Source: an uncultured virus (IMG/VR IMGVR_UViG_3300035135_002062) (Duplodnaviria; Heunggongvirae; Uroviricota; Caudoviricetes). From it: 64,000 bases of DNA. Location: IMG/VR virus record IMGVR_UViG_3300035135_002062; one strand, 5' to 3'. The notes under the pieces were generated by a model. That model had not been told where the DNA came from. It saw only the letters and a list, made by a program, of their open reading frames with translations, and did no database searches. The number at the start of each line of letters is the position of its first letter. Position 1 is the stretch's first letter. This document shows, in pieces, positions 16,817 to 42,093 of this stretch. A program made the translations under genes and the position numbers.

Positions 16817-16914
16817 TATAATTGTCCATATTATTCTTTTTATGGTGTAATAAAATAATACGAAAAATAATTTACTATATCAAATTTTTCTAGTATATTT
16901 ATTAATATTCTAGT

Positions 16915-17112
16915 ATGTTAATAATAAAGGTTAAGAAAGATAAAGGTGGAATAGAAGCGGCGATAAAAAAACTCCGTAGTAAGGTTCGTCGCACAAAACA
17001 GTTAAATCAACTTAGGGAAAGAAAACAATACACAAAACCTTCAGTAAAGAAAAGACTACAAAAACAAAAAGCCATATACATTCAAAGAATAAGAACCGAA
17101 GAAGAAAAGTAA
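16915..17112 (+). CDS. rpsU: 30S ribosomal protein bS21
   Basis: IEAAIKKLRSKV...LRERKQYTKPSVKKR...KAIYIQ matches Bacteroidota-type S21. Confidence 0.92.
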   Translation: MLIIKVKKDKGGIEAAIKKLRSKVRRTKQLNQLRERKQYTKPSVKKRLQKQKAIYIQRIRTEEEK

Positions 17113-25793: not shown

Positions 25794-26035
25794 TTCAGTT
25801 TCTTGTACTCGTAGGTCTTCGATATATTCAAATTGAAGAACCTACCTGTGGATTCTGCGAGTCTAAGTTTTGTAAACTTTTCCCACGGAACCTTATAATA
25901 CTCATACACACCACCACTTTTAAAAGTAATTTGTAGTGTACCGTCTTCAGTATTATAAGACGCAGACTTAAGATTTGATGATGTTATCTCACAAAGAATG
26001 TTTTTACCCTCAATTGTTTCAGATGATATAGGCAT
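25790..26035 (-). CDS. KTSC-domain protein
   Basis: SSNLKSASYN...LQITFKSGGVYEYYKVP...AESTGRFFNLNI. Confidence 0.9.
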   Translation of the reverse strand: MPISSETIEGKNILCEITSSNLKSASYNTEDGTLQITFKSGGVYEYYKVPWEKFTKLRLAESTGRFFNLNISKTYEYKKLK

Positions 26036-26114
26036 AATATTATGTTTTATATAAAATGTAACAATTTATCGGGACAAAATCAAGTCCGTCTGATGTACCT
26101 AATAAATATCTGTG

Positions 26115-26148
26115 AAAAAATAAACCCCCAATAAAGGGGGATTTATTT
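26115..26148 (-). terminator. terminator after hsp20
   Basis: CCCCC/GGGGG-core hairpin flanked by an A-run. Confidence 0.65.
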
Positions 26149-26515
26149 ATTTGATTGAGATGGTTCTTTGTTTTGTGACCTTTTTGTTCTTCGGTATTGT
26201 GATCTTTAAAATACCATTCTCAGATTTAGCACTAATCTTACTTTGTGTTACATCCTCAGGTAATTGATAGGATCTTTCAAACGTATGAACAAATGAATTT
26301 TCGTTTTCTTCGTTAGTATATGATACTTTTAATAAGTTTTCCTCGACAGTAACAGATACATCATCTTTTGTTAAGCCAGGTAATACAAATTGTAATTCAT
26401 ATTCATTATCAGTTTCGTTCTTTATAGTATTCACAAAACCTGAATAATTTTGTTTATGGTCATTGAAAAAATTCTCAACCAAGTTAAAAAATGGGTCTCT
26501 TTTTAATAAAAACAT
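26147..26515 (-). CDS. small heat shock protein (Hsp20/alpha-crystallin)
   Basis: LPGLTKDDVSV, FERSYQLP, SAKSENGILKITIPK. Confidence 0.93.
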   Translation of the reverse strand: MFLLKRDPFFNLVENFFNDHKQNYSGFVNTIKNETDNEYELQFVLPGLTKDDVSVTVEENLLKVSYTNEENENSFVHTFERSYQLPEDVTQSKISAKSENGILKITIPKNKKVTKQRTISIK

Positions 26516-26697
26516 TTTCTTTAAATTTTTATAAGTTTATTTATATAGTAATAGACAAAATGAATACCAAGATTAAAAACCTGAAGTTTTGTCACAAATA
26601 TAACATTTATACGTGACATATTGACACTGTAGGTGTTATCTTATGTCGAGGTTGACTTTTGGTATTATTTTGTGTATGTTTTATAAAAATTGATTTT

Positions 26698-28716
26698 ATG
26701 CCAATAGATTTTTACGAAGATAACGAAGAGAAACAATCACAGAGAAAAGGTAAGAAGAATAGTAATACACCCGTTCTCGATAATTTTTCAAGAGATTTAA
26801 CAAGATTAGCCCAAGAAGGTAGGATAGACCCTATTATAGGTAGAGACAAAGAGGTAATGAGAATATCACGAATCTTGTCTCGAAAAAAGAAAAATAATGT
26901 GGTTATAGTTGGTGATGCGGGTGTTGGTAAATCCGCACTTGTTGAAAAACTAGCGTTAATGATTACTGAGGGTACATGCCCAACCAATCTCCTTGATAAG
27001 AGAATCATGGCTCTTGATTTGACTGCTTTGGTTGCAGGAACAAAATATAGAGGACAATTTGAAGAGAGAATTAAGGCGATATTAACTGAGTTAGAAGATG
27101 CACCTAATGTAATTGTTTTTATTGATGAACTACATACTATGGTTGGTGCAGGAAACGCGTCAGGTTCTATGGATGCCGCGAATATTTTGAAACCCGCACT
27201 CGCAAGAGGAGAAATTCAATGTATAGGAGCAACAACTTTTGATGAATTTAAAAAGAACATTGAGAAAGATGGTGCTTTGGTAAGAAGATTCCAAAAAATT
27301 ATTTTACAAGAACCAACATACGATGAAACCATTGAGATTCTTAAAAACTTAAGACCTTCTTATGAGGACTATCATAGGGTTAATTACACAAAAGATGTTA
27401 TTGAAACCATTGTAATGTTGTCAAAAAGATATATTACAGATAAACAATTTCCTGATAAGGCAATTGACATATTGGATGAGTTAGGTTCTGAAAAGAAAAT
27501 AAGTATTAAAGTACCTGAATCGATTGAAGAACTTAAAAAAGAGGCAGACGATATTAAACTCCAAAAATTGGCAGTCGTAAAAGATCAAAATTATGAGTTA
27601 GCCGCGAACTTAAGAGACCAAGAAAAATCAGTATTAAAGAAACTTGATCAGGAAAAGATAAAGTGGAATAACGAACAGAAATTAAATAAAAAACCCATCC
27701 ACGTTGATGATGTTTATGAGATGATCAGTGACACCGTTGGTGTACCGATTAATAAACTCGATTCGACTGAGTCTAAAAACTTACTCTCTTTAGAAAAGAA
27801 TATTACTAAAAGAGTTATTGGTCAAGACGATGCGGTTAGTAAAATTGCAAAGGCCATTAGAAGAAATAGAGTCGGAGTACGTGGTGCAAACAAACCTATC
27901 GGATCTTTTATGTTTTTAGGGTCAACAGGTGTAGGTAAAACTTATTTAGCGAAAACACTTGCAGACACATTATTCGGTGATCCTGAAAAAATCATTCGTG
28001 TTGATATGAGTGAATTTATGGAAAAACATAATGTCTCCAAACTAATTGGTTCTCCACCAGGATATGTTGGATATGATGAGGGTGGACAACTAACTGAAAA
28101 AATTAAAAATAATCCTTTTTCTGTTGTATTGTTCGATGAGATAGAAAAGGCACATAAGGATGTATTTAATCTTCTACTTCAAATATTAGATGAAGGTCAC
28201 CTAACCGATTCATTCGGAAGAAAAGTTAACTTCTCCAATACACTTATTATCATGACATCTAATATAGGTGCTAAGAAAGTTTCTGATTTTGGTGCGGGAG
28301 TAGGTTTTTCAGACGAAACCAATCAAGAAAAGGTTAAAGATTCAATTATTAAAAAATCACTAAAACAACAATTTAGTCCTGAGTTTTTGAATAGAGTTGA
28401 TGATATCGTTGTATTCAATAAATTAGAAGAAAAGTCTCTGAAAAGAATTGTGACTATAGAAATGAATAAATTGAAATCAAGACTAAAAGAAAAGAATTAT
28501 AATATTAAATTCCATTCTTCGGTTTCAATAGAAATTTTAAATAGAAATTCTGAAGAAGAATATGGTGCTAGACCTATAAGAAGAATCATACAAAATCTAT
28601 GTGAAGATTTTATTAGTGATCAGATTTTATTAGGTAATATAAACGAGAAAGAACCTATAGAAATTAAATTTTCCGAAGGGGAATTGAAATTTTCTGAAAA
28701 TTTACCCCTGATTTAA
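26698..28716 (+). CDS. clpC: ClpC-type AAA+ chaperone/protease ATPase lacking the N-terminal Clp-N domain
   Basis: Two AAA modules (GDAGVGKS, FIDELH; GSTGVGKT, FDEIEKAH), UVR M-domain (QNYELAANLRD), ClpP-docking GVGF loop; ATG at 26698. Confidence 0.9.
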   Translation: MPIDFYEDNEEKQSQRKGKKNSNTPVLDNFSRDLTRLAQEGRIDPIIGRDKEVMRISRILSRKKKNNVVIVGDAGVGKSALVEKLALMITEGTCPTNLLDKRIMALDLTALVAGTKYRGQFEERIKAILTELEDAPNVIVFIDELHTMVGAGNASGSMDAANILKPALARGEIQCIGATTFDEFKKNIEKDGALVRRFQKIILQEPTYDETIEILKNLRPSYEDYHRVNYTKDVIETIVMLSKRYITDKQFPDKAIDILDELGSEKKISIKVPESIEELKKEADDIKLQKLAVVKDQNYELAANLRDQEKSVLKKLDQEKIKWNNEQKLNKKPIHVDDVYEMISDTVGVPINKLDSTESKNLLSLEKNITKRVIGQDDAVSKIAKAIRRNRVGVRGANKPIGSFMFLGSTGVGKTYLAKTLADTLFGDPEKIIRVDMSEFMEKHNVSKLIGSPPGYVGYDEGGQLTEKIKNNPFSVVLFDEIEKAHKDVFNLLLQILDEGHLTDSFGRKVNFSNTLIIMTSNIGAKKVSDFGAGVGFSDETNQEKVKDSIIKKSLKQQFSPEFLNRVDDIVVFNKLEEKSLKRIVTIEMNKLKSRLKEKNYNIKFHSSVSIEILNRNSEEEYGARPIRRIIQNLCEDFISDQILLGNINEKEPIEIKFSEGELKFSENLPLI

Positions 28717-28758
28717 AAGAAAACGGAACTTTTTTAATTTTTATATATATTTATACAT

Positions 28759-28863
28759 CGAAGGTTCTCTTTGCCGAAACCTTTTCGTTTTTCTCGTTAT
28801 TCAATGGTGTTGAAACCATTGTAGACCTAAAACCCCAGCAATCCTTGTTGGGGTTTATTTTTT
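28759..28863 (+). ncRNA. putative small non-coding RNA 1
   Basis: TATTTATA late motif at 28748-28755, hairpins AAGGTT/AACCTT and CAATGGT/ACCATTG, then terminator AAACCCCAGCAA-TCC-TTGTTGGGGTTT plus U-run; no ORF. Confidence 0.6.
28829..28863 (+). terminator. rho-independent terminator
   Basis: 12-bp hairpin with one G-U pair (favours the plus strand) followed by a T-run. Confidence 0.8.
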
Positions 28864-28872
28864 GTCTACTTT

Positions 28873-29754
28873 TTACAAACTGACTAACATGTCCACCAAT
28901 TCTTTTTGTGGGAACATATCAACCTTATCTTTCCTTGTATTTGTATGTGTCCATAAACCTTTCACTTTACCATAGTATGCATCTTCATTAAATTCAAATG
29001 CAGATACACCGATTTTCTTAATCATTTCAGGTAATCCTTTACGAACATCAATCGAGTCTCTCTCCGCTATCCAAAGGATCCATTTTCTTAAAGATTCTAT
29101 TTGTGCATCAGAATAACGATGCCATGTTTTATGTCCTCTGAATTCTTGATCAAGAGTTACTAATTGACTTTCGTGTACTCTTGTACCCGCATATGTTTTA
29201 CCGTCCTTTACCCAACCAAAATTACAAACCTCAATACCAACTGAATGTGTGTGCATATGTTGTGATCCATTTTTTCCTAAATGCCAACCGTAACCACCTT
29301 CGGGAATACATTGTACCATTTCTCCATCGTATCTATCATCATTTCCTTTTACGGAAGGACCACCTAAAACAAATTCAGTAGCAACCGCACCTCTATCATC
29401 CCTACCCCAATGATCAACACATCTATATGGGTTATGCCAACCTGCGGTATGATGTAAGAAAACATATTCTTTACTCGTTGGTCCTTGTTTATATTCCCCC
29501 ACAGGTAAAAAGTGTCTATTTACGATTAAACCGTTTTCCGTTTCATACGTCTTTTCCGAATTATCAGTAGTAGCGAGACCCATAGCGTCCCAAGTGGCAG
29601 GACCGACAATACCGTCAGAATCCAAATTATTTTCTGATTGCCATTTTTTAACAGCGTTCGAAGTTCCCGAACCGAAGATACCATCAGCTCCGATACCGAG
29701 AAATTCTTGAAGTTCTTTAACTTCCTTTCCTCTTGATCCAATTTTTAAAATCAT
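28873..29754 (-). CDS. endolysin: peptidoglycan-binding domain plus N-acetylmuramoyl-L-alanine amidase
   Basis: ADGIFGSGT...DGIVGPATW (PG_binding_1); LHHTAG, SVGIEVCN, HTN...KVD (Amidase_2). Confidence 0.9.
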   Translation of the reverse strand: MILKIGSRGKEVKELQEFLGIGADGIFGSGTSNAVKKWQSENNLDSDGIVGPATWDAMGLATTDNSEKTYETENGLIVNRHFLPVGEYKQGPTSKEYVFLHHTAGWHNPYRCVDHWGRDDRGAVATEFVLGGPSVKGNDDRYDGEMVQCIPEGGYGWHLGKNGSQHMHTHSVGIEVCNFGWVKDGKTYAGTRVHESQLVTLDQEFRGHKTWHRYSDAQIESLRKWILWIAERDSIDVRKGLPEMIKKIGVSAFEFNEDAYYGKVKGLWTHTNTRKDKVDMFPQKELVDMLVSL

Positions 29755-29766
29755 TCTTTATTTTTT

Positions 29767-30000
29767 TTACTCTTGTCCTTTTTTACCAAAGATTTTACCA
29801 ACCTCAGCAATACCAAAAGAACCTAATGTTATCACTACAAAAGAATTGTAGATAAACTCGTTAATTACTAAGTCTTTTCCGAAGTACCCTGTAAGTAAAT
29901 CTGCAAATGCAAATAATGTCATGATTGCAAATGACGCGAAACCAACAACCGATTTCTCGTTAATGTCGTTTTCATCTTTAAATAAGTCTTTAAATGCCAT
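29767..30000 (-). CDS. two-TM membrane protein, candidate holin
   Basis: 77 aa with two hydrophobic helices, directly upstream of the endolysin. Confidence 0.55.
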   Translation of the reverse strand: MAFKDLFKDENDINEKSVVGFASFAIMTLFAFADLLTGYFGKDLVINEFIYNSFVVITLGSFGIAEVGKIFGKKGQE

Positions 30001-30102
30001 AATTTTAATTTTTACTTTTTTAATGATCTCTCGATCTTTTATATAAATAGTTCCGAATCACAGATTGATTCTTTTAAAATTTTTCTGTATTATTTATATC
30101 GT

Positions 30103-30192
30103 ATGATTAAAAGAATTAAGGATCACTTAATTATAAAAACCATACCTTTGTGGTTTCACATAAAAAAAGTGAGATTATGGAGAATGATATGA
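30103..30192 (+). CDS. small basic ORF (29 aa, MIKRIKDHLIIKTIPLWFHIKKVRLWRMI)
   Basis: ATG 4 nt after TATTTATA (30091-30098); below the ORF-track cutoff. Confidence 0.4.
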   Translation: MIKRIKDHLIIKTIPLWFHIKKVRLWRMI

Positions 30193-30204
30193 ATCAAAAC
30201 TTAA

Positions 30205-30699
30205 ATGTATAATAAAAGAGAAATTTTGGTTTTTGTCTTTGTGATTTTAGCGATCACTCTAAGATTATTACCACATCCACCAAACTTCACACCAATCACC
30301 GCATTAGCATTATTTGGTGGTGTAACATTTAAAGATAGATGGGTTGGAATTTCTATCCCACTTATCACTATGTTTGTTTCTGATATTTATTTGGGTTTTT
30401 ATACGATATCCTATTGGGTTTATGGATCGTTTTTTTTAATTAGTCTGATGGGTACTTTTTGGAAAAAAATGAATCTAAAGAGTATAGTTATATCAACACT
30501 ACTATTTTTCTTCATAACTAATTTTGGGGTTTGGTTGTTAGGGTACCCAAAAACAATAGAAGGTTTTATTCTTTGTTACACCTTAGCACTACCATTTTTA
30601 ATTAATTCACTTTTGGGTGATTTATTTTTTGGGTATTTACTTAAGAGGACATTTAAATATTCAGAAAAAAGACTAATGCTCGGTTCGTCTATCGGTTAG
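30205..30699 (+). CDS. integral membrane protein, DUF6580-like putative transporter/ECF S-component
   Basis: RLLPHPPNFTPITALALFGG, SDIYLGFY, FFFITNFGVW, CYTLALPF. Confidence 0.75.
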   Translation: MYNKREILVFVFVILAITLRLLPHPPNFTPITALALFGGVTFKDRWVGISIPLITMFVSDIYLGFYTISYWVYGSFFLISLMGTFWKKMNLKSIVISTLLFFFITNFGVWLLGYPKTIEGFILCYTLALPFLINSLLGDLFFGYLLKRTFKYSEKRLMLGSSIG

Positions 30700-30749
30700 G
30701 ACTTCAGGTTTTCATCCTGGCAAGAGGGGTTCGATTCCCCTACCGAGTA
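30678..30749 (+). tRNA. tRNA-Glu (TTC)
   Basis: Acceptor GCTCGGT/ACCGAGT, anticodon arm TCAGG-TTTTCAT-CCTGG, T-arm AGGGG-TTCGATT-CCCCT; CCA not encoded. Confidence 0.92.
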
Positions 30750-30751
30750 CA

Positions 30752-31140
30752 ACTATCGTTCTTTGACATAAACTAAATTAAATTTAAAAATTATGGAAAA
30801 TTTAGAATTCATTTTAGGTGTACTTACAACAATTGGTGTATTCGGTTTAGGGTACGTTATAGTAGGTATAGTTAAGGTTAAACAACGTTCCAATGATTTC
30901 GAGGAAGTCCTAAACGGAACACAATTAGATTTAGAGAATAATCAAAGAGAGATCCAGTTAAGGTTGGATCAAGAGGTGAAAAACCTTGAAGACCGAGTAG
31001 ATGACCTTTATCGACATATCGATAGTAGGTTTGATAAATTCGAGAATAGGATAACTAAACTCGATAAAGATGGGTGTGAACCCGTAAAATCTAAACAAGT
31101 GTTGACTGACTAGTCAAAATAAACGTTAAAGAATGATAGT
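30752..31140 (+). repeat. 16-bp inverted repeat (30752-30767 / 31125-31140) bracketing an ORF; left arm contains boxA-like GTTCTTTGACA
   Basis: ACTATCGTTCTTTGAC pairs with GTTAAAGAATGATAGT, 14 Watson-Crick plus 2 G-U. Confidence 0.75.
30793..31113 (+). CDS. single-TM coiled-coil membrane protein
   Basis: N-terminal hydrophobic helix followed by heptad repeats. Confidence 0.75.
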   Translation: MENLEFILGVLTTIGVFGLGYVIVGIVKVKQRSNDFEEVLNGTQLDLENNQREIQLRLDQEVKNLEDRVDDLYRHIDSRFDKFENRITKLDKDGCEPVKSKQVLTD

Positions 31141-31168
31141 AAACCCCACAGAAATGTGGGGTTTTTTT
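31141..31168 (+). terminator. rho-independent terminator
   Basis: AAACCCCACA-GAAA-TGTGGGGTTT followed by a T-run. Confidence 0.9.
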
Positions 31169-31224
31169 GTTTATATGGGGTAGGGGGTTGATTTTTATTT
31201 ATATGGTTCATACATTTACACTAT

Positions 31225-31310
31225 GCCGAAGTGGTGGAATTGGTAGACACGAGGGACTTAAAATCCCTTGGACAGTAATGTCCGTGACGGTTCGAGCCCG
31301 TCCTTCGGTA
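31225..31310 (+). tRNA. tRNA-Leu (TAA)
   Basis: GCCGAAG/CTTCGGT acceptor, AGGGA-CTTAAAA-TCCCT anticodon arm, long variable arm GGACAGTAATGTCC. Confidence 0.95.
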
Positions 31311-31389
<79 letters not shown>

Positions 31390-31403
31390 CTAAATTTTTA
31401 AAT

Positions 31404-31808
31404 ATGAAATATACAAATAGATACGGAGACGAACACAGTTTTTTACTAAACGAAAATGGTAACATTCAGTGGAGTGGTAATTTTGAACATTCACGTTTTG
31501 GGGCTGCTAATGTGTATAATGATGCATACAATGAATTTAAGAAAGATGGTGGTACATTATCTATAGAAGAGTTCATTAAGGAAGTTCACCATTACGATGA
31601 GGAAACTTATAAACCATCAAAAATTGCGAAAACCTATGGTAATTATGTCTATTCTGATTGGGATACAATTACTATGGTAGATCCTTCAGGAGGTCCTTAT
31701 ATTACTAAAGGAATGGATATGAAATATTACGGATTTGACGGTAAAATTGTTGCTGGTTTTACACCCAATAATGATGGATATGAGATAGTTGTAGAATCGG
31801 ACTCTTAG
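31404..31808 (+). CDS. hypothetical protein
   Basis: 134 aa, contains MVDPSGGPYI; stop codon lies inside the downstream tRNA. Confidence 0.75.
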   Translation: MKYTNRYGDEHSFLLNENGNIQWSGNFEHSRFGAANVYNDAYNEFKKDGGTLSIEEFIKEVHHYDEETYKPSKIAKTYGNYVYSDWDTITMVDPSGGPYITKGMDMKYYGFDGKIVAGFTPNNDGYEIVVESDS

Positions 31809-31872
31809 CTCAGTTGGTCAGAGCACCGCACTCATAATGCGATGGTCGGGGGTTCAAGTCCCTCAGGGTCCA
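31799..31872 (+). tRNA. tRNA with CAT anticodon, probably tRNA-Ile2 (lysidine) rather than Met
   Basis: GGACTCT/AGGGTCC acceptor, CGCA-CTCATAA-TGCG arm; lacks initiator features (no C1 mismatch, no GGG/CCC anticodon stem). Confidence 0.85.
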
Positions 31873-31890
31873 CAACGTATATTTATAAAC

Positions 31891-32262
31891 ATGATAGATA
31901 CATGGTGGAAAGGTGTAGGTAAATCTAAAGTGGTTTGTCCATGGGGAGACTACACCGTGTTATTTGAAAATGATAATGTTAAAGTAAAACATATAAGAAT
32001 AAACCCTAATTCAAAACTCTCATATCAATATCATTTAAGGAGAAGAGAGTCTTGGACAGTAATCAAAGGTGAACTAACCATAATATTAGACGATCTTAAA
32101 TCATTTAGATCTTACGGTGAAAGTATAAAAATACCGTTAGGTAGTAGACATAGAGCGATCAACGAAACAGATGAAATAGTTGAGTTTATTGAGGTACAAA
32201 CAGGGGAATACTTTGGTGAAGATGATATTGTAAGAATTGATGATGATTTTGGAAGGGTTTAA
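31891..32262 (+). CDS. mannose-6-phosphate isomerase type II C-terminal cupin
   Basis: PWG, KLSYQYHLRRRESW, IEVQTGEYFGEDDIVRIDDDFGR; ATG 3 nt after TATTTATA. Confidence 0.88.
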   Translation: MIDTWWKGVGKSKVVCPWGDYTVLFENDNVKVKHIRINPNSKLSYQYHLRRRESWTVIKGELTIILDDLKSFRSYGESIKIPLGSRHRAINETDEIVEFIEVQTGEYFGEDDIVRIDDDFGRV

Positions 32263-32296
32263 TTTTTGATTGTATTTATTAAACACAATTTAATAA

Positions 32297-32485
32297 ATGA
32301 CTAATAGTGAATTTTACGAAGAATTATATCATCGAGCCCATAGACTCGGTGTTGTATCCGAACTCAGAAAAAGAGTCGATAAACGATTCAAAGAGTCTGA
32401 TAAAGGATGGGACATGACTTCCGCAGTAAATTTCGCTCAAGAAGAACTTGATAAAATCATTAAGGAAGGAAAAAGTATTGATTAA
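32297..32485 (+). CDS. hypothetical protein
   Basis: 62-aa ORF with TATTTAT upstream. Confidence 0.6.
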   Translation: MTNSEFYEELYHRAHRLGVVSELRKRVDKRFKESDKGWDMTSAVNFAQEELDKIIKEGKSID

Positions 32486-32512
32486 TTAGAGTTTTTTCCT
32501 TACAATAACTAC

Positions 32513-33190
32513 ATGAATACGATAAGTGTAGTTTACTCAACAAGAAAGATCGATCCAAATTACTTTAATCACGTAAAGAAATTCTTTTCGCATCCAAAGA
32601 ATGAATATTTGGTTTATGAAAACAATGGTGAAAGATCTCTGACAGACATATATAACGAAGGGTTAGAAAAATCAACAAACGACGTGGTTGTTTTTATCCA
32701 CGATGATTTAGAGTTCGAAACAAAGAATCTAACACCTAAAATATTAAAATTATTTGATAGAAATCCTGATTACGGAATACTCGGTTTAGCGGGTACAGAT
32801 AACCTTATTTCGGGTCAATGGTGGGAAGATAGATCTTCGATGCAAGGACAAGTAGGTCATATACATGGACCCAAAAAATACATCTCAAAGTATTCGAAAT
32901 CTTTTGGTGATAAAATAAAAGATGTTGTTATTATTGATGGTTTATTTATGATGATTCATAAAAAAAGAATCAAACACAATTTTGACACTCAGTTTAATGG
33001 ATTTCACTTCTACGATCTCCCAATATGTCTTTTGAATTACTTAGAGGGAGTAAAGGTCGGAGTTACAACTAAAATAAAGTTATACCATAAATCAATAGGT
33101 CAGACAGACACAAAATGGTTAAAAAATAAATTGTTTTTTGAGGCTTTATATGAAAAACATTTTCCTCTTAATTGTCAAGAGACAGAATAA
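32513..33190 (+). CDS. glycosyltransferase (GT-A, Glyco_tranf_2_5-like)
   Basis: YNEGL, VVFIHDD, GILGLAG, IDGLFM, GFHFYD. Confidence 0.8.
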   Translation: MNTISVVYSTRKIDPNYFNHVKKFFSHPKNEYLVYENNGERSLTDIYNEGLEKSTNDVVVFIHDDLEFETKNLTPKILKLFDRNPDYGILGLAGTDNLISGQWWEDRSSMQGQVGHIHGPKKYISKYSKSFGDKIKDVVIIDGLFMMIHKKRIKHNFDTQFNGFHFYDLPICLLNYLEGVKVGVTTKIKLYHKSIGQTDTKWLKNKLFFEALYEKHFPLNCQETE

Positions 33191-33244
33191 TAATTTACTT
33201 ATAACTTAATTTTCCATATATTTATCTGTAAACAAATTAATATT

Positions 33245-33409
33245 ATGAAAAAAATTATTGAATTTTTTAAGAAACTTCTTGGTATTAAGAAGGAAGAGGT
33301 TAAGCCTGTAGTGAAACCAAAACCTAAAAGAAAACCAAGGAAAAAGACTTCAGGTGGTGGTGGTTCATCTACCTCATCTAAGAAACCTTCTTTGAAGGCA
33401 ATAAAGTAA
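33245..33409 (+). CDS. small, very basic protein (54 aa, MKKIIEFFKKLLGIKK...KPKPKRKPRKK...)
   Basis: Open frame after TATTTAT (33219-33225); stop abuts the tmRNA 5' end. Confidence 0.65.
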   Translation: MKKIIEFFKKLLGIKKEEVKPVVKPKPKRKPRKKTSGGGGSSTSSKKPSLKAIK

Positions 33410-33791
33410 GGGGGTGACTGGCATTGATTGGCGTAGTCAATTATAACAGGGCACGTAGTGAGATGTTTCCTATCACTTAAATCTACGGATACTACTTTTA
33501 AATGGCGAACTTTATCGCAATATGGAATTAGCGGGTCTTGTATCTGTTGATTCTAAAGTGGCAGTAGCGTAAGTTATTACCACAACGGGTCGGGACATAT
33601 AACCTAGGAACAGAAGTCTTACAAAGGTGGAAAAACGACTGAACCTGAAATCGAGTCGTACATCTATTGGTGATGGAGGATGTAAAAATTCAATCACATA
33701 TTTCGGAATATTGAGAATCGATATTGACCTAAACGTGTAGTCCTCTATAGTTGGGACGAGCAAGACGAGGGTTCGAAACCCTCCACCTCCA
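33410..33791 (+). ncRNA. ssrA: tmRNA (ssrA); predicted tag (A)GELYRNMELAGLVSVDSKVAVA at 33504-33572
   Basis: Acceptor GGGGGTG/CACCTCC-A with G3-U70, T-arm GAGGG-TTCGAAA-CCCTC, TTAAAT-GGC resume context, Ala-rich tag end; CCA not encoded. Confidence 0.9.
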
Positions 33792-33794
33792 CTG

Positions 33795-33827
33795 AAAATG
33801 AACTGTGAAAATGGTTCATTTTTTTTT
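33795..33827 (+). terminator. terminator after the tmRNA (possibly bidirectional)
   Basis: AAAATGAACT...GGTTCATTTT hairpin plus T-run. Confidence 0.75.
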
Positions 33828-33829
33828 GC

Positions 33830-33951
33830 CAAACTTGGAAGTGTATAACGAACAAAGAGGTCAATTGACCCCTTTGCCGAGATATTAATTACACTCTCCT
33901 TTCGTTTTTTTTCTCGTTTATCAATCAAGACCGACCAAAGCCCCAACTTCT
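33830..33951 (-). ncRNA. putative small non-coding RNA 2, complementary to sRNA 1
   Basis: Minus-strand TATTTATA at 33955-33962; hairpin GGCAAAGGGGTC-AATT-GACCTCTTTGTT whose G-U pairs favour the minus strand; collinear similarity to 28766-28839. Confidence 0.55.
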
Positions 33952-34038
33952 ACTTATAAATATCTTTTAGATAAAAAAAATACCCCTTTTTACGGAGGTA
34001 TTTAACTTTTTTTTTATACTAATTTTGGTGTGAAAATA

Positions 34039-34683
34039 TTAAGTCTTTAACTTACTTCTAAGGTTCATTGTACATATAGATGCTGCAAGTTTTTCACCTA
34101 TATCACTACCTCTTAAATACTCACCACCCACTTGTCTGAGGAAGTTAGATGCTGCGGAATTTTTTTCTGCACCACCTGAAACATACACAAATAAACCTTC
34201 CATAAATGCGTCAGCCAATTTATCACCATGTTTAACACAACTATCTTGTCCTTTAAATATTACAACAACGTCACCTAATTTAAGATCTGCAAGTGATGCT
34301 GCGACCGCGTCACGTAAAGCACCTTTAAAACCGACCATACCCAATAGTTTTCTAATAATGTATTCACGAACTTGTGACATGACACCACTACCTAATTTAT
34401 CCGTTACATTTCCCTTATCAAACTTATTACCTGAGGAATCTGAAGAACCATCCCCGCCTGGCGCAATATACTTTGATAACCAATCGGTTATACCTTCGTC
34501 TAACGAACCCTCAATCTCTTCATCGGATTTACCCATCTTTTCAAGATCAACAAGTGCATCAACCGCATCATTGAATTTATCTTCTTCGGTACCATCTACA
34601 TTCTCTACAATTCTTCTGAAAGTTTCCTTAGTCTCATAAGTTTCAAGAAGTGTTTTCTTTACTATACTATCTATATTACTCAT
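34039..34683 (-). CDS. hypothetical protein, probable internal virion protein
   Basis: Likely start MSNIDSIVKK at 34683, overlapping the upstream stop. Confidence 0.7.
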   Translation of the reverse strand: MSNIDSIVKKTLLETYETKETFRRIVENVDGTEEDKFNDAVDALVDLEKMGKSDEEIEGSLDEGITDWLSKYIAPGGDGSSDSSGNKFDKGNVTDKLGSGVMSQVREYIIRKLLGMVGFKGALRDAVAASLADLKLGDVVVIFKGQDSCVKHGDKLADAFMEGLFVYVSGGAEKNSAASNFLRQVGGEYLRGSDIGEKLAASICTMNLRSKLKT

Positions 34684-36811
34684 TGTCTTTAAGTTTTTTA
34701 ATACCTTGTTCTTTTCTAGCGATTTTTCTTGCAGTTGCATTGTCCGCCTTCCAAACATATTTACCTTTTTCCAAAGTCTCTTTCTTTTTCTCTAAAGAAT
34801 AACTTTTTGAGGCCATATAATAATTGATAATCGTAAGTTGTTTTTGAGTGAGTTCCTCATCTAATTTTAAAACAAATCTTCCGCCTCTAAACTTAATTTG
34901 ATTATCTATAATGTTTTTAATTAATCGACCATCAACAGTTTTATTGATTTGATCTTCTAATTTCTCAACACCGTGAATTTTAATCATCTGTGCTGTGTCT
35001 AATGTAGGTAATGCAATTGGTACAATACCTTTAGGTTCGATTTTACTTACTTTTTCGACTTTCTTATCATTATCAACCGATTTTAGTTTGATGACTTCAT
35101 CATCTCCTTTACATTCTTTAGTAATCTTATCATAACTACTCTTAGTAATTGTCTTAGAGTACCCAACAATTACAGATGCAAGTCTTGCGTCAGTCTTAGG
35201 TCCATAATAACCATCAACCTTTAATTTACCCGCACATCTTTGAACATCCTTGATCTTATCACTGATACATCCGATTTTGAAAGGGAATGAATCACATGGT
35301 ACATATTTGATTTTACCTGATCCACTACCACCTTCTTTTTCATTCCAAGAAACTGTAATGTGTGATAAACCTGTTTTAGGGTTACCATCTCCTTGGAAAC
35401 CTCCTGTATCTGAATCTCCTTTTTCTCCACCACCTGATTTTGTTACTGTGTATCCAATTAAAGAAAGTAACTCATCTCTTAATTCTGTGGCTTCAAAATC
35501 TAAACCTTTAAGTTCCATTATGTGTTCACCTAACCTCTTTCCTTTGATTTTAGGGTAGTTACTCACAAATACCTTGAGTGCAGGTCTATTTTTATACGTT
35601 CTGTTCTCTAAACTCTTTATAAGGTTATATGCGTCCTTTAAATCCGTTGCATCAGAGTCAAAAAAGTCACCATTGAGGTTGTCCTCTACTGCATCAAACA
35701 TTCTACTTAATTCTTTTGTAGAAATATCACTTGTTGTTTGTTTCGCGTTATCACTTACTTTAATACCTGTAAGACCTTGTTCATTTAACAAACCTGATTG
35801 ATTACATGACCAAGTACCTGTTTCTCCATTCGCAGATTTGACAGAATAGTCAGATGAGAATATCACATGTCCACCTGTCTTTTTACCACCAAACTCATCA
35901 ATTTTATATTTTACTGATATTACTCCATTATCGTCTATTAGTATTTCCGCATTATCATCATCCGCCAATGGTTCTACAATACATTCCATCCAATCGTTGA
36001 TTGGTAGTAGATCGTCTTCTGAAGGGATATCACTCTCTTCTCCTGACCAAAGTGAGTCCCACATACTTTTAATTACGTAATATGCAACACCACCAATTAA
36101 TAACCACCATAATAATTTCATAAGTCCCGCGTTTCTCACTGAACCCTTAACTGCGGTGACTATACCTCTACCTAATTTTGTGTTTTTAACATTATCAGCA
36201 ACCTGTTTAATTTTACCTCCAAACCTTGTTTTTGTTGTTTGTTTAACAATGTCATCAGTACTCTTCACACCAGTAGTCGCCGTTTTAGTGCCCGTTTTAG
36301 TGCCCGTTTTAGTGCCTGTTTTAGTTGTTTTTAATACACTTTGAAATTTCTCGTTATTCTTAGCGGCTTTTAATATCTCCGTTATTGCATCATCGGTATA
36401 ACCACTATTTTTAAGAGATACTTTGGTGAGTGGTTTACCATCTTTCGCGTATTTCTGAATAAACATTCCCGTTTGTACATAATCAGGAGCTAACCTTGCA
36501 ATAAAGTTGGTACTTACCCCTTTAGTTTTCATAAAACCTACCGCAACATCACCAACTTGTTTAGCCGATAAAGTACCTTTGGCTAGTCCATATACTAAAT
36601 CATCAATTGTTTTCCCAGTAAAATTCCTAATTTGTCTGGCGTTAAAAATTAATTCTATATCTTTACCTAAAACTGGTTTCGCGTCTTTAAGTGCGGCGAT
36701 AGTCAAGTTATCAATATTCTTGAAAAGTGCCTTTAGGGCCGCTACTTGTTCACCCACTTCAACTTTAGGGACATCTACATTAGTTTCTTTTAATATTTCA
36801 GTTAATTTCAT
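34676..36811 (-). CDS. large virion-associated protein with a TM segment and a peptidoglycan-binding-like motif
   Basis: MKLTEILKE start, TM LLWWLLIGGVAYYVI, IKDVQRCAGKLKVDGYYGPKT. Confidence 0.6.
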   Translation of the reverse strand: MKLTEILKETNVDVPKVEVGEQVAALKALFKNIDNLTIAALKDAKPVLGKDIELIFNARQIRNFTGKTIDDLVYGLAKGTLSAKQVGDVAVGFMKTKGVSTNFIARLAPDYVQTGMFIQKYAKDGKPLTKVSLKNSGYTDDAITEILKAAKNNEKFQSVLKTTKTGTKTGTKTGTKTATTGVKSTDDIVKQTTKTRFGGKIKQVADNVKNTKLGRGIVTAVKGSVRNAGLMKLLWWLLIGGVAYYVIKSMWDSLWSGEESDIPSEDDLLPINDWMECIVEPLADDDNAEILIDDNGVISVKYKIDEFGGKKTGGHVIFSSDYSVKSANGETGTWSCNQSGLLNEQGLTGIKVSDNAKQTTSDISTKELSRMFDAVEDNLNGDFFDSDATDLKDAYNLIKSLENRTYKNRPALKVFVSNYPKIKGKRLGEHIMELKGLDFEATELRDELLSLIGYTVTKSGGGEKGDSDTGGFQGDGNPKTGLSHITVSWNEKEGGSGSGKIKYVPCDSFPFKIGCISDKIKDVQRCAGKLKVDGYYGPKTDARLASVIVGYSKTITKSSYDKITKECKGDDEVIKLKSVDNDKKVEKVSKIEPKGIVPIALPTLDTAQMIKIHGVEKLEDQINKTVDGRLIKNIIDNQIKFRGGRFVLKLDEELTQKQLTIINYYMASKSYSLEKKKETLEKGKYVWKADNATARKIARKEQGIKKLKDNE
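36281..36325 (-). repeat. 12-nt tandem repeat encoding (TKTG)n
   Basis: cgttttagtgcc x3 plus a partial copy. Confidence 0.85.
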
Positions 36812-38990: not shown

Positions 38991-39359
38991 ATGAAAGTAC
39001 ATCCTTATGTATATGTTGGGTTGAATAAACAAACTCAAGCGACATTTAAAAAAAGTAGACACAATAATATAAATCCCGATACCGTACTTAAGATTGTCTC
39101 TCAAAAGACGGGTGTCACAGTAAATGAAATACTGTCAAGATCAAGAATCAGAGAAATATCTGATGCAAGACAGATGTTTTGTTATATAATGAGGGAAAAG
39201 TATGGTATGAGATACGCCAAAATTGGTCGAATTATTGGTAGAGACCATGCAACAGCAATCCACTCTTGTAAATCACATAAAGACAAATGTGATGTGGAAA
39301 GAGAATATAGAGAATTAACTAAAATTACTTGTGAACTCGTAAGAGAGTCCGAATTCTAA
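38991..39359 (+). CDS. stand-alone DnaA domain IV (Bac_DnaA_C) DNA-binding protein
   Basis: ILSRSRIREISDARQMFCYIMRE...IGRIIGRDHATAIHS. Confidence 0.88.
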   Translation: MKVHPYVYVGLNKQTQATFKKSRHNNINPDTVLKIVSQKTGVTVNEILSRSRIREISDARQMFCYIMREKYGMRYAKIGRIIGRDHATAIHSCKSHKDKCDVEREYRELTKITCELVRESEF

Positions 39360-40329: not shown

Positions 40330-42093
40330 CTATAATGGAATTTTGGACCCTATCATAAAAGAATTTAAAACAGGTATATTTGGGTCTGAGGATTTGATCA
40401 TTGTCCAACCGAGGTTGAAACTAAATTTGTTCGTCACCTGAACGGTAAACGAGTTTGATAATACACCCATGAAAGGGATTTTAGTCCCTCTGAGTGTGTT
40501 TTTTACTTTAAATGCAACACCATCAACAGTAAAGTCATCATAACCTGTCATGACAGGTGTTTGTAAGAAAATAAATGCGGGTGAATAAGTGATTCTATCA
40601 GTTAGTTTAAGAGTATTAGTATATAGAAGGTTGTACCCCAACATAAAATTTTCTCTGATTGCCTCCTTGATAAATACGGTACCGTAACTCACCCCAATAC
40701 CTACGACACCATACTTACCTAAGGGTTTTAATTCAGTAATACTTCCCATGACCGCATTACTTGTATAATTTCTTGTATAACTCAAAGCCAAAGAACTTAT
40801 ACTTCTGACCTTGTAATCTTTTGTCATATGTACTTTAGACATATTGGCTGACAGTGATGCCTGTTGCAGGTTTGCCCATATCATGAGGTTACCACCGTAT
40901 GAAACGTCACCAAAAATAGATGACCGTGAAACCCCGATATTGACGATGTAATCATAGGAACCCAGAAGAGTCTGCATAGACATCACGTCGGCCTTTAATT
41001 GTATTGGAAGGAATTTTTTCTTTTCCTCCTCTTTTTCTTCCTCTTCTTCAGAGTCTTCTTCTTTCTGTTCTTCTTTTTCCTCTTCTTCCGATTCCTCTTT
41101 ATCTTCTTCTTTTTCTTCTTCTTTATTTTCCTCTTCTTTTTCTTCTTCTTTATTTTCTTCTTTTTCTTCAGATTTTTCCTCTACTTCTTCTTCGGTGTCT
41201 TCGGATTTTTCCTCGGAGTTATCGTCACTTTCTCCCCCATTATCCTCTTCGCCGTCCGATCCATTTTCTGAATCCCCTCCATTGTCATTTTCCTCTGACG
41301 AATCTGATCCCTCTCCACTATCTCCTGAGTTGTCATCCGAATCTCCACTACCTTCTCCTGAATCTCCTCCACTATCTCCCGAATTCTCGTCCGAAGATCC
41401 TGACGAATCTGAAGAACTGTTTTCGTCTGATCCCGTTCCCCCCGAAGTATCAGATTCAGAAGATCCACCTGAATCCCCACCAGACGAACCTGAATCACCA
41501 CCTGATGAACCCGAAGAATTATTATCTGACCCACTATTCGAATTCGACGAATCCCCTCCTGAACTTGAGGAACCACCACTCGAACTCGACGAACCACTTG
41601 ATGTATTATTTGATGAATTGTTTCCATTAGTACTACCTGTATTTGTTGACCCTGTATTAGTACTACCCGTATTTGTTGTTCCTGTATTTGTTGTCCCCGT
41701 ATTCGCGGTATTATTTGCGGCACTTGAAGCTGCGTTAGACGCATTACTCGCCGCGTTAGATGCACTACTCGCAGCATTTGATGCGTTAGTTGCTGTTTGT
41801 TGTGCATTTTGTGTTTGTGCTGTTGTTGAAGAACACGGTGACAATGCGTTCCACCAAGAGTATGTCTCTAACAACCAATTCTGTAATTCACCATTCGTAT
41901 ACTCTTGATAAGTGAATGTTTTAATTCTATTGTAAAACGCAACGGTTGCCGATCCATTGACAAAGTTTGCGGTTACAACTTGAGGTTGTTGAGTACATCT
42001 ATCGATAAAGACTTGGGTAAAAACCTGACCTAACGATTTAGTAGAACACAATAACAGTAAAATAAGGATAGTTTTTCGCACATTAATTTTCAA
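40330..42093 (-). CDS. secreted protein with a long low-complexity (TNTG, S/G/D, E/K) linker and C-terminal outer-membrane beta-barrel-like domain
   Basis: Signal peptide; repeat tract about 41020-41800; alternating amphipathic strands in the last ~230 aa. Confidence 0.6.
   Translation of the reverse strand: MKINVRKTILILLLLCSTKSLGQVFTQVFIDRCTQQPQVVTANFVNGSATVAFYNRIKTFTYQEYTNGELQNWLLETYSWWNALSPCSSTTAQTQNAQQTATNASNAASSASNAASNASNAASSAANNTANTGTTNTGTTNTGSTNTGSTNTGSTNGNNSSNNTSSGSSSSSGGSSSSGGDSSNSNSGSDNNSSGSSGGDSGSSGGDSGGSSESDTSGGTGSDENSSSDSSGSSDENSGDSGGDSGEGSGDSDDNSGDSGEGSDSSEENDNGGDSENGSDGEEDNGGESDDNSEEKSEDTEEEVEEKSEEKEENKEEEKEEENKEEEKEEDKEESEEEEKEEQKEEDSEEEEEKEEEKKKFLPIQLKADVMSMQTLLGSYDYIVNIGVSRSSIFGDVSYGGNLMIWANLQQASLSANMSKVHMTKDYKVRSISSLALSYTRNYTSNAVMGSITELKPLGKYGVVGIGVSYGTVFIKEAIRENFMLGYNLLYTNTLKLTDRITYSPAFIFLQTPVMTGYDDFTVDGVAFKVKNTLRGTKIPFMGVLSNSFTVQVTNKFSFNLGWTMIKSSDPNIPVLNSFMIGSKIPL

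Follow-up and report, generated by a model that had tools for sequence, protein, structure and literature searches.

What is encoded in two short intergenic elements that lie 5.1 kb apart in the genome of an uncultured virus of the class Caudoviricetes, and is the one made to interact with the other? The question is raised by a stretch of 64,000 nucleotides (nt; IMG/VR record IMGVR_UViG_3300035135_002062), called the window throughout, which comes from a large T4-like phage of Bacteroidota that encodes bS21. An original prediction made from the sequence alone had noticed two loci, copy 1 and copy 2, and had taken them for mutually complementary small RNAs. On balance, we consider it probable that the loci are two different trans-encoded small-RNA genes, here termed RNA1 and RNA2, each equipped with a TATTTATA box and a terminator, whose products anneal as a small RNA (sRNA) and its antagonist. 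The conservation of the two elements, their structures, strands and complementarity and their presence in RNA libraries are established.

RNA1 was found in at least 120 viral contigs by a pattern scan of IMG/VR. In 77 of the 80 loci fetched through the ClpB-like gene, a conserved element some 120 nt long comes directly after that gene; the three loci without it end at or just past the gene. Conservation was read from 102 distinct sequences; a profile hidden Markov model (HMM) was built from 73 relatives of copy 1, and a covariance model (CM) scores 104.4 bits in the window. The following parts of the RNA1 gene can be distinguished.

28744-28755, + strand: box TATATATTTATA, invariant in the 102 distinct RNA1 sequences.
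28761-28863, + strand: RNA1, about 102 nt, from a predicted start to the end of the terminator U-run.
28762-28782, + strand: hairpin H1 with stem AGGTT/AACCT; block A (28766-28777) consists of its apical loop CTCTTTGCCGA and the adjoining bases.
28780-28798, + strand: single-stranded linker CCTTTTCGTTTTT(CTCGTT), block B, in which CCU(3-4)CG and a following U-run are conserved.
28802-28821, + strand: hairpin H2 (CAATGGT/ACCATTG) with the invariant loop GTTGAA; five of five modelled pairs covary.
28824-28832, + strand: single-stranded GACCTAAAA, block C, with nearly invariant GACC.
28833-28863, + strand: intrinsic terminator CCCCAGCAA/TTGTTGGGG followed by a T-run; six of nine pairs covary.

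The structure derived with RNAalifold is paired in 99.4% of 2040 cells, and 12 of its 20 pairs change on both sides. None of 500 shuffles reached the covariation score, and controls in which the structure was slid along the alignment were 28-57% paired, a range that covers RNA1 and RNA2. The H1 loop TCTTTGYCGA is invariant save for the Y, while the fourth pair of its stem covaries (UA 88, AU 11, CG 1). In the terminator, G-U dominates at one pair (GU 70, AU 27, GC 5).

RNA2 was recovered from 40 contigs by a scan with its core pattern and, by its CM, from 14 further RNA1-bearing records at 92-114 bits. The model also produced five weak matches at 28.8-33.5 bits. A weak match on contig L256 (1590-1625, record G031, about 30 bits) proved to be an ordinary gene terminator with a GGTC..GACC stem, and low-scoring matches are therefore not to be counted as RNA2. 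The RNA2 gene is composed as follows.

33955-33964, - strand: box GATATTTATA, whose TATTTAT does not vary among 30 distinct RNA2 sequences.
33949-33846, - strand: RNA2, about 104 nt, from a predicted start some 6-7 nt past the box to its own terminator.
33926-33948, - strand: 5' hairpin B with loop UUUGGUCG, block C'; on the + strand the loop reads CGACCAAA (33932-33939).
33892-33912, - strand: A-rich linker and Shine-Dalgarno (SD)-like core AAAAAAAACGAAAGGAGAGUG, block B' and extended SD; the linker is followed by ACGAAA(A)GGAGGU.
33879-33898, - strand: helix predicted by RNAalifold, in which the SD core (GAGA in the window, GAGGU in most relatives) pairs with AUCUC.
33869-33880, - strand: UCGGCAAAGGGG, block A', which shares bases with the 5' arm of the RNA2 terminator.
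33843-33876, - strand: intrinsic terminator CAAAGGGGUC-AAUU-GACCUCUUUG followed by UUCGUU...; 11 pairs, 100% paired, the stem at 33853-33876 preceding the U-tract.

All 20 modelled pairs of RNA2 hold, with 99.2% of 599 cells paired, five pairs covary, and again none of 500 shuffles reached the score. Covariation is found at three of the four modelled pairs of hairpin B (UA14/UG9/GC4/CG3, GC19/AU8/GU3 and GC21/CG7/UA2), whose stem in the window pairs on the minus strand only, and in the terminator in L041 and L057. The helix that masks the SD core is paired in 96.7% of cells and does not covary because both its sides are almost invariant. Between the 5' hairpin and the A-rich linker a GAUAA is conserved, and UCGRCAAAGG leads into the 11-bp terminator stem and then UUGUUCGUU. 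Three terminator pairs are predominantly G-U (28, 20 and 26 of 30) and would be A-C if read on the + strand. Conservation among the 30 distinct sequences ends exactly at the edge of the box, and RNA2 stays constant while its neighbours differ among relatives, in many of which it adjoins tRNAs and the transfer-messenger RNA (tmRNA) gene. Both the terminator of RNA2 and its SD-like core had been missed in the original prediction. RNA1 and RNA2 thus each have a covarying structure, with 12 and five covarying pairs, respectively, and end in an intrinsic terminator on their own RNA strand.

Strand and orientation follow from two kinds of observation. The first is the box. TATTTATA is located at 28748-28755 (+) and 33955-33962 (-) and occurs 21 times in the window vs. 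11.1 times expected; by our own count, 14 of the 19 other occurrences lie at most 60 nt upstream of an open reading frame (ORF) or tRNA start in the same direction, and the genes behind such boxes include those for the prohead protease and the terminase. The box, whose extended form is ATATATTTATA, is seen 3-56 nt ahead of starts; its sites include 4318, 8307, 16369, 21562, 36826, 54748, 56981 and 61546. Judged by this distribution, TATTTATA behaves as a phage promoter box. The T4 late promoter box TATAAATA is its reverse complement, and the orientation was therefore taken from the gene contexts and not from T4. Read in this way, both RNAs possess a promoter-like element of their own in the right orientation, with start sites predicted from it, and it is plausible that both are late transcripts. 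The second kind of observation is the asymmetry of wobble pairs. The RNA1 structure is paired to 99.4% on the + strand vs. 94.0% on the - strand, with 116 G-U cells compared to 5 A-C cells, which identifies + as the RNA strand; for RNA2 the same columns are paired to 99.2% on the - strand and 75.3% on the + strand, with 147 G-U vs. 4 A-C cells. The earlier assignment of RNA1 to the + and RNA2 to the - strand is thus well supported by the G-U asymmetry and by boxes oriented toward genes.

Another candidate for a promoter was considered and discarded. The Bacteroidota -7 promoter element has the consensus TAnnTTTG, and the DNA of the RNA1 H1 loop (28767-28774 in the window) reads TATCTTTG, which resembles it, in some relatives, e.g., L009 and L019. 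A host-type -7 promoter in the H1 loop or in copy 2 was rejected since the TA is not conserved and since the G-U evidence places RNA2 on the opposite strand.

Sequences of both elements are present in RNA libraries. The data are Logan contigs, which carry no strand information, from four metatranscriptome runs belonging to two studies labelled marine. Depth is highest at the tmRNA (94-473), by far the best covered part of the stretch, and at the tRNAs (up to 233), a pattern that RNA and not DNA would be expected to give. A contig of 173 nt corresponds to 28690-28862 without a difference; it starts inside the ClpB-like gene and stops one base short of the end of the RNA1 U-run. In two samples of one study, contigs reach from the 3' end of the tmRNA into RNA2 and across it up to 33940, where they end in both samples, some 9 nt before the predicted start; a contig from the second study covers 33728-33888. 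These contigs are compatible with the two-RNA model and do not prove strand or ends. In one run (X2) an RNA contig from a related strain differs at 33384-33409, just upstream of the tmRNA, by an insertion of 12 nt and several further changes, and two skips of 95-96 nt within the tmRNA were seen in RNA contigs; insertion and skips probably stem from divergent relatives.

Three of the four conserved unpaired segments of RNA1 are complementary to conserved segments of RNA2, and they are so in collinear antiparallel order. In block A, the H1 loop UCUUUGYCGA of RNA1 faces UCGRCAAAGG of RNA2 over 10-12 bp. In block B, the linker CCU(3-4)CGU(n) matches the A-run and CGAAA(A)GG, i.e., the first half of the SD-like core, over 10-13 bp, with lineage-specific extensions, among them CUCGUU/AACGAG (clade of the window), AUAAGU/ACUUAU (main clade) and UAGUCU/AGACUA (a third clade). 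In block C, GACC and flanking A's of RNA1 meet the hairpin B loop UUUGGUCG (GGUC). The duplex of the two RNAs in the window was calculated with RNAduplex at -60.4 kcal/mol vs. -39.1±4.9 for 300 dinucleotide shuffles, none of which reached it, while RNA1 and copy 2 read on the + strand yield -20.3 kcal/mol. Among 8524 tiles from both strands, the best non-self target of the 5' 48 nt of RNA1 is the minus strand of the RNA2 locus (-40.8, z = -5.4); conversely, the RNA1 locus ranks third as a target of the RNA2 centre in a tile scan of the window. The previously suggested complementarity of RNA1(+) and RNA2(-) therefore goes beyond chance. When accessibility is taken into account, the best site is the linker-linker contact of block B in five of five lineages (-7.4 to -15.4 kcal/mol), blocks A and C being costly to open because they lie partly within stems. 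The window was also searched for further targets: CTTTGCCGA has 10 matches in the window with at most one mismatch vs. 5.7 expected (9 of 100 shuffles reach this) and is exact at the two loci only, and CCTTTTCGTTTTT has 15 matches with at most two mismatches vs. 6.0 expected, the extra ones being T-rich stretches within genes.

In a comparison of 31 genomes carrying both RNAs, block A is paired in 343 of 372 cells and block B in 372 of 434. The variable Y/R pair of block A (C-G 17, U-A 8, U-G 4, C-A 2) pairs in 29 of the 31 genomes; the 'A' variant of RNA2 accompanies a 'U' in RNA1 except in L041 and L057, and the state has changed more than once on the tree, e.g., in c001404 inside an otherwise C-G clade. 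In most genomes the U-run that precedes CG in RNA1 and the A-run that follows CG in RNA2 are equally long, 4/4 or 3/3. Cognate partners form better duplexes than non-cognate ones, both at full length (mean -52.2 vs. -48.7 kcal/mol) and in the central region (-20.0 vs. -17.4), and in neither case did any of 5000 permutations reach the difference. Sorted by clade, each RNA1 pairs best with the RNA2 of its own clade in three of three rows, and two of three columns agree.

A number of findings weigh against an evolved partnership. In the remaining column, RNA2s of clade IIa pair better with RNA1s of clade IIb than with their own. If intramolecular structure is included, the cofold gain of -14.6 compares with -9.6±3.7 for shuffles, 25 of 300 of which reach it, and is not significant. 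Most paired positions are invariant across genomes, which leaves covariation between the loci thin: compensatory changes amount to few independent events, and when partners are permuted, pairing is at least as good as that observed in 88 (block A) and 19 (block B) of 2000 trials, i.e., p of about 0.04 and 0.01 in a permutation that ignores phylogeny. Block A contains two C-A mismatches in L041 and L057, the most divergent lineage, and block B is degraded in L003. Both RNAs have the same box, so that no temporal logic for an antagonist is evident. The RNA contigs carry neither strand information nor mapped 5' or 3' ends and may include DNA carry-over, and the depth of RNA2 is modest, 2-11 compared to 94-473 for the tmRNA. 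Complementarity between accessible regions exceeds chance, although the cofold gain by itself is not significant; in view of the cofold result, the invariance and the mismatches in single lineages we grade pairing of RNA1 and RNA2 as likely and no higher.

The same points nourish the explanation that survives best next to that of an sRNA and its antagonist, namely that RNA1 and RNA2 are genuine but functionally independent small RNAs, each with its own targets, such as mRNAs of phage or host, proteins or the ribosome, and that their complementarity is incidental or a weak side interaction. It would account for conserved parts that the partner leaves unexplained, i.e., the H2 loop GUUGAA of RNA1, which is without a complement in RNA2, and GAUAA and the AGGU(G/A)U of the SD in RNA2. 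It would also fit the cofold gain that 25 of 300 shuffles attain and the broken block A of L041 and L057, and the U-rich and A-rich compositions of the partners inflate duplex energies, the shuffles already averaging -39 kcal/mol. Less easily reconciled with independence are the collinear antiparallel match of three of four conserved unpaired RNA1 segments, the rank of RNA2 as top target among 8524 tiles, the superiority of cognate over non-cognate pairs in 5000 of 5000 permutations and, in the tabulated genomes, the restriction of the RNA2 'A' variant to RNA1 'U' with a single lineage excepted. We regard independence as unlikely.

What RNA2 might bind apart from RNA1 is suggested by its SD-like core. 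The 3' tail of Bacteroidota 16S rRNA is printed as 5'-ACCUCCUUUCU-3' and the 'perfect SD' as 5'-AGAAAGGAGGU-3' (Jha et al., 2021; PMC7797042). The anti-SD is described there as buried under bS21, bS18 and bS6, with mRNAs lacking SDs (PMC7797042; PMC9976891), rpsU alone retaining an extended SD by which bS21-less ribosomes restore bS21 (Jha et al., 2021, PMC7797042; McNutt et al., 2023, PMC9976891). The RNA2 core ..CGAAA(A)GGAGGU(G/A)U.. is complementary to this tail. Among 59 RNA2 variants the longest perfect match measures 10 nt (18 variants), 9 nt (31), 8 nt (six) or 6 nt (four), and complementarity is hence extended, 9-10 nt, in 49 of the 59. Duplexes with the tail have a mean energy of -14.8 kcal/mol (range -17.1 to -13.3), compared to -16.6 for the 'perfect SD' oligonucleotide, whereas tiles of the window average -5.6±2.5 kcal/mol (n=2556) and none falls to -14 or below. 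The RNA2 of the window is the weakest of the family (-13.3 kcal/mol), and nine window tiles are equally good. AAGGAGG as such is not enriched in the window (5 vs. 6.2 expected). In 81 rpsU leaders of Bacteroidota genomes we read ..(A)GAAAGGAGGU(G/U).., 6-12 nt before ATG, the start codon being 6-12 nt past AAGGAGGT. RNA2 differs in that neither a start codon (AUG, GUG or UUG) nor a conserved ORF is found behind its SD. An extended SD of the rpsU type without an ORF points to the 16S 3' tail of the host as a partner of RNA2. The rpsU leaders themselves were also considered as targets of RNA1 and rejected: no more than GAAAGG is generally shared, and only two of the 81 leaders read ACGAAAGGAGG as RNA2 does.

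RNA1 in turn resembles the tail. With the CCUUU(U)C of its linker CCUUU(U)CG it repeats the last 6-7 bases of the 16S tail, and this linker is the segment that pairs with GAAA(A)GG, one half of the RNA2 SD, which would make RNA1 and the ribosomal tail mutually exclusive partners of RNA2. This invites a further reading, in which the two RNAs form an SD/anti-SD pair in trans, RNA2 acting as an ORF-less decoy of the host rpsU leader and RNA1 as competitor or switch. RNA2 would capture the 16S 3' tail that is freed on bS21-less 30S subunits and could thereby blunt the autoregulatory re-synthesis of bS21 by the host or mark subunits for the bS21 of the phage, while RNA1 might in addition open the SD-masking helix of RNA2. 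We offer this as a tentative proposal with a rather low probability; a link of this kind to the host anti-SD and the bS21 circuit would be unusual.

For the annealing of sRNA and antagonist we envisage the following course, in which we infer transcription start sites, in vivo annealing and function. RNA1 would be transcribed on the + strand from the box just past the ClpB-like gene and RNA2 on the - strand from the like box 5.1 kb away. Contact would nucleate at the two single-stranded linkers and then spread into the SD-masking helix and the terminator arm of RNA2, with one RNA titrating or remodelling the other. The 16S 3' tail of host ribosomes may be the other partner of RNA2, and RNA1 and the tail would then compete for the same bases.

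A joint role of the two RNAs presupposes that they occur together. RNA1 was found in four of five RNA2-bearing records, the exception being a fragment that is 54% complete, and RNA2 in three of three RNA1-bearing records with a completeness of 90% or more. The single RNA2-bearing record of at least 90% completeness also holds RNA1, such that all four near-complete records contain both. The nearest record, G001/G043, lacks an RNA2 locus because it ends just beyond RNA1. Subtraction of contig positions gives a distance between RNA1 and RNA2 of 5-28 kb among relatives, and the two RNAs point toward each other in the window and in four genomes compared.

Both elements could instead be cis-acting gene ends, copy 1 being the 3' untranslated region (UTR) and terminator of the ClpB-like mRNA and copy 2 a shared terminator and UTR region between the tmRNA and the convergent gene at 34039-34758. 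RNA1 does always stand behind the ClpB-like gene (77 of 80 loci), the sole RNA contig over RNA1 starts in that gene at 28690, and some contigs join copy 2 to the 3' end of the tmRNA. A mere gene end would, on the other hand, hardly call for an invariant box of the type that precedes genes between the stop codon and each element, nor for covarying hairpins and a terminator of its own in each, and RNA2 remains constant while its neighbours vary among relatives. We judge this explanation to be quite improbable.

Far less probable still is that the loci are a decayed direct repeat or a recombination scar flanking the lysis/tRNA/tmRNA block, which the original prediction had named as its null. What had suggested similarity is present in the sequence. 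Short blocks in direct orientation are common to both loci and bracket the variable tRNA/tmRNA region, and four such blocks lie where they had been placed (TCTCTTTGCCGA/CCCCTTTGCCGA; CG(T-run)CTCGTT..TCAAT; AGACC; AAAACCCCAGC/AAAGCCCCAAC). The second block exists, with copy 2 reading CCTTTCG and T8 instead of CCTTTTCG and T7. The hairpins CAATGGT/ACCATTG in copy 1 and GAGA/TCTC in copy 2, the TATTTATA boxes at 28748-28755 (+) and 33955-33962 (-) and the terminator behind copy 1 are likewise found. Substitutions between the loci had been expected to become G-U wobbles in the duplex; of the G/A differences in block 4 one does so and the other gives an A-C mismatch. The loci are nevertheless not copies of one element. 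Their architectures differ, and their local alignment score of 29 equals that of the best unrelated window tiles (28-30, four scoring schemes), placing plain DNA similarity at chance level. The pair is not among the top families in a general repeat search of the window. At E values up to 10, the RNA1 HMM matches each locus exactly once and copy 2 not at all; to the same limit, the RNA1 CM, run with its filters switched off, has no match to 33846-33950 on the + or the - strand. The loci are consequently not detectable paralogues. Strong purifying selection on both elements and their different structures in more than 100 contigs, together with a spacing that ranges from 5 to 28 kb, contradict a decayed repeat.

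Contradicted and least probable of all are small protein-coding genes, for which a 22-codon ATG ORF on the minus strand across copy 1 (28819 to 28751, read by eye) and the string AUC UCG GCA AAG GGG UCN UAA after the SD of many RNA2s might be adduced, since substitutions track base-pairing without codon periodicity, indels among relatives are not multiples of three, the strand evidence puts RNA1 on +, and behind the RNA2 SD there is no AUG, GUG or UUG and, in the clade of the window, no in-frame stop. With no conserved ORF in RNA1 or RNA2, the small toxin gene of a type I toxin-antitoxin system is likewise missing.

Comparative evidence thus upholds the core of the original prediction, two separate trans-encoded small RNAs on opposite strands, each from a TATTTATA box. 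Other elements of it are not supported. Control of lysis timing had been proposed on account of the convergent endolysin gene; among 68 loci with at least 1.2 kb downstream of RNA1, however, that gene is convergent in only 14, lies elsewhere in two and was not found in 52. The supposed pairing of the RNA2 5' end with the RNA1 terminator arm is restricted to close relatives of the window.

The genomic surroundings identify the type of phage. Genes for a gp23-type capsid protein, a gp20-type portal, a prohead protease and a large terminase are encoded in the window, and the layout agrees with that of the bS21 phages of freshwater Bacteroidetes in Chen et al. (2022; PMC9723584). IMG/VR relatives measure up to 335 kb. 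A similarity search of 26000-36000 against the named phage genomes of INPHARED gave tRNA-sized matches only. The features next to the two RNAs and the bS21 gene are listed below.

16915-17112, + strand: phage bS21 gene (Pfam PF01165, 40.9 bits).
26659-28716, + strand: ClpB/ClpC-like double-AAA ATPase gene (Pfam AAA_2, AAA_lid_9, ClpB_D2-small; PHROG 4871), directly upstream of RNA1.
28873-29754, - strand: amidase endolysin gene, convergent with RNA1.
33410-33794, + strand: phage tmRNA (ARAGORN; Rfam RF00023, 66.3 bits).
33410-33828, + strand: tmRNA plus its terminator, convergent with RNA2.

The bS21 gene is oriented opposite to the surrounding structural genes. An SD sequence was looked for upstream of it and not found; the upstream region (16890-16914) contains a variant of the box, TATATTTATTA, at a distance of 11 nt from the ATG. 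An Hsp20 gene (26147-26515, -) is divergent from the ClpB/ClpC-like ATPase gene (26659-28716, +), and Hsp20, the ATPase, tmRNA, tRNAs and bS21 make up a translation and protein-quality-control set. The tmRNA was detected by ARAGORN in 11 of 20 relatives' loci scanned and, by coordinate reading, lies at most 2 kb from RNA2 in each; its predicted tag is VDSKVAVA, and tags in relatives end in ..VAVA or ..KVAA. An ORF of 144 codons with a TTG start (33512-33946, -) spans RNA2 and continues through the tmRNA in antisense direction; this ORF almost certainly does not represent a gene. Farther away, the ORFs at 14166-15584 (-) and 40330-42093 (-) are rich in short acidic, GAA-rich tandem repeats (families D1-D6), and 38991-39359 (+) encodes a small protein with a DnaA C-terminal helix-turn-helix domain (PF08299, 72 bits).

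A search of the window with Rfam 15 at the gathering threshold returned four tRNAs and the tmRNA only, and permissive scans of both loci peaked at 27.5 bits (rli38, gathering 49) and 23.8 bits (Phe_leader, gathering 55), in line with the original statement that no known family is recognisable. A search of literature listings yielded no description of RNA1 or RNA2, and a search with the 16S-tail string was likewise empty; the words tmRNA, promoter, small RNA and non-coding are absent from the text of PMC9723584. RNA1 and RNA2 accordingly appear to be two new RNA families, candidates for trans-encoded base-pairing small RNAs or for an sRNA-antagonist pair. Of all ribosomal proteins, bS21 is the one that phages carry most often, and how such phages redirect Bacteroidota ribosomes is an open question. 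A conserved ORF-less RNA2 with a host-type extended SD, together with an RNA1 that can pair across this SD, would provide a testable handle on it: does RNA2 bind to bS21-less 30S subunits, does RNA1 compete, and is the loading of host and phage bS21 changed? Should the link to the ribosome fail, what remains is a pair of new RNA families, present in over 100 viral contigs of lake and marine origin, and a rare candidate for two trans-encoded RNAs of a lytic-type phage that evolved for mutual pairing.

Among known systems, base-pairing sRNA/sponge (anti-sRNA) pairs, including prophage-encoded anti-sRNAs, offer a parallel, e.g., AgvB vs. GcvB and SroC vs. GcvB. They share with RNA1 and RNA2 two trans-encoded RNAs with promoters and terminators of their own, complementary accessible seeds and possible titration; the difference is that RNA1 and RNA2 both come from one lytic-type phage and have the same box, that their complementarity is tripartite and that no mRNA target is known. 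Bacteroidota are not known to possess Hfq. CopA/CopT and RNAI/RNAII are antisense kissing-loop systems that are cis-encoded and fully complementary. Similar to these, the H1 loop of RNA1 and the hairpin B loop of RNA2 are complementary to the partner and a longer duplex is possible, whereas the genes for RNA1 and RNA2 lie 5-28 kb apart and are complementary in blocks of 10-13 nt only. The tRNA region of T4 encodes small stable RNAs, and here, too, small non-coding RNAs of a T4-like phage are located near a tRNA cluster; we detected no sequence or Rfam relationship of these to RNA1 or RNA2, which have their own boxes and terminators and are not processed from a tRNA precursor. The rpsU leader of Flavobacteriales and other Bacteroidota, finally, differs from RNA2 in that the latter is phage-encoded, about 100 nt long, ended by a terminator and devoid of a start codon or bS21 ORF; what the two have in common is the extended SD, which in RNA2 is complementary to the 16S tail over 8-10 nt (rarely 6).

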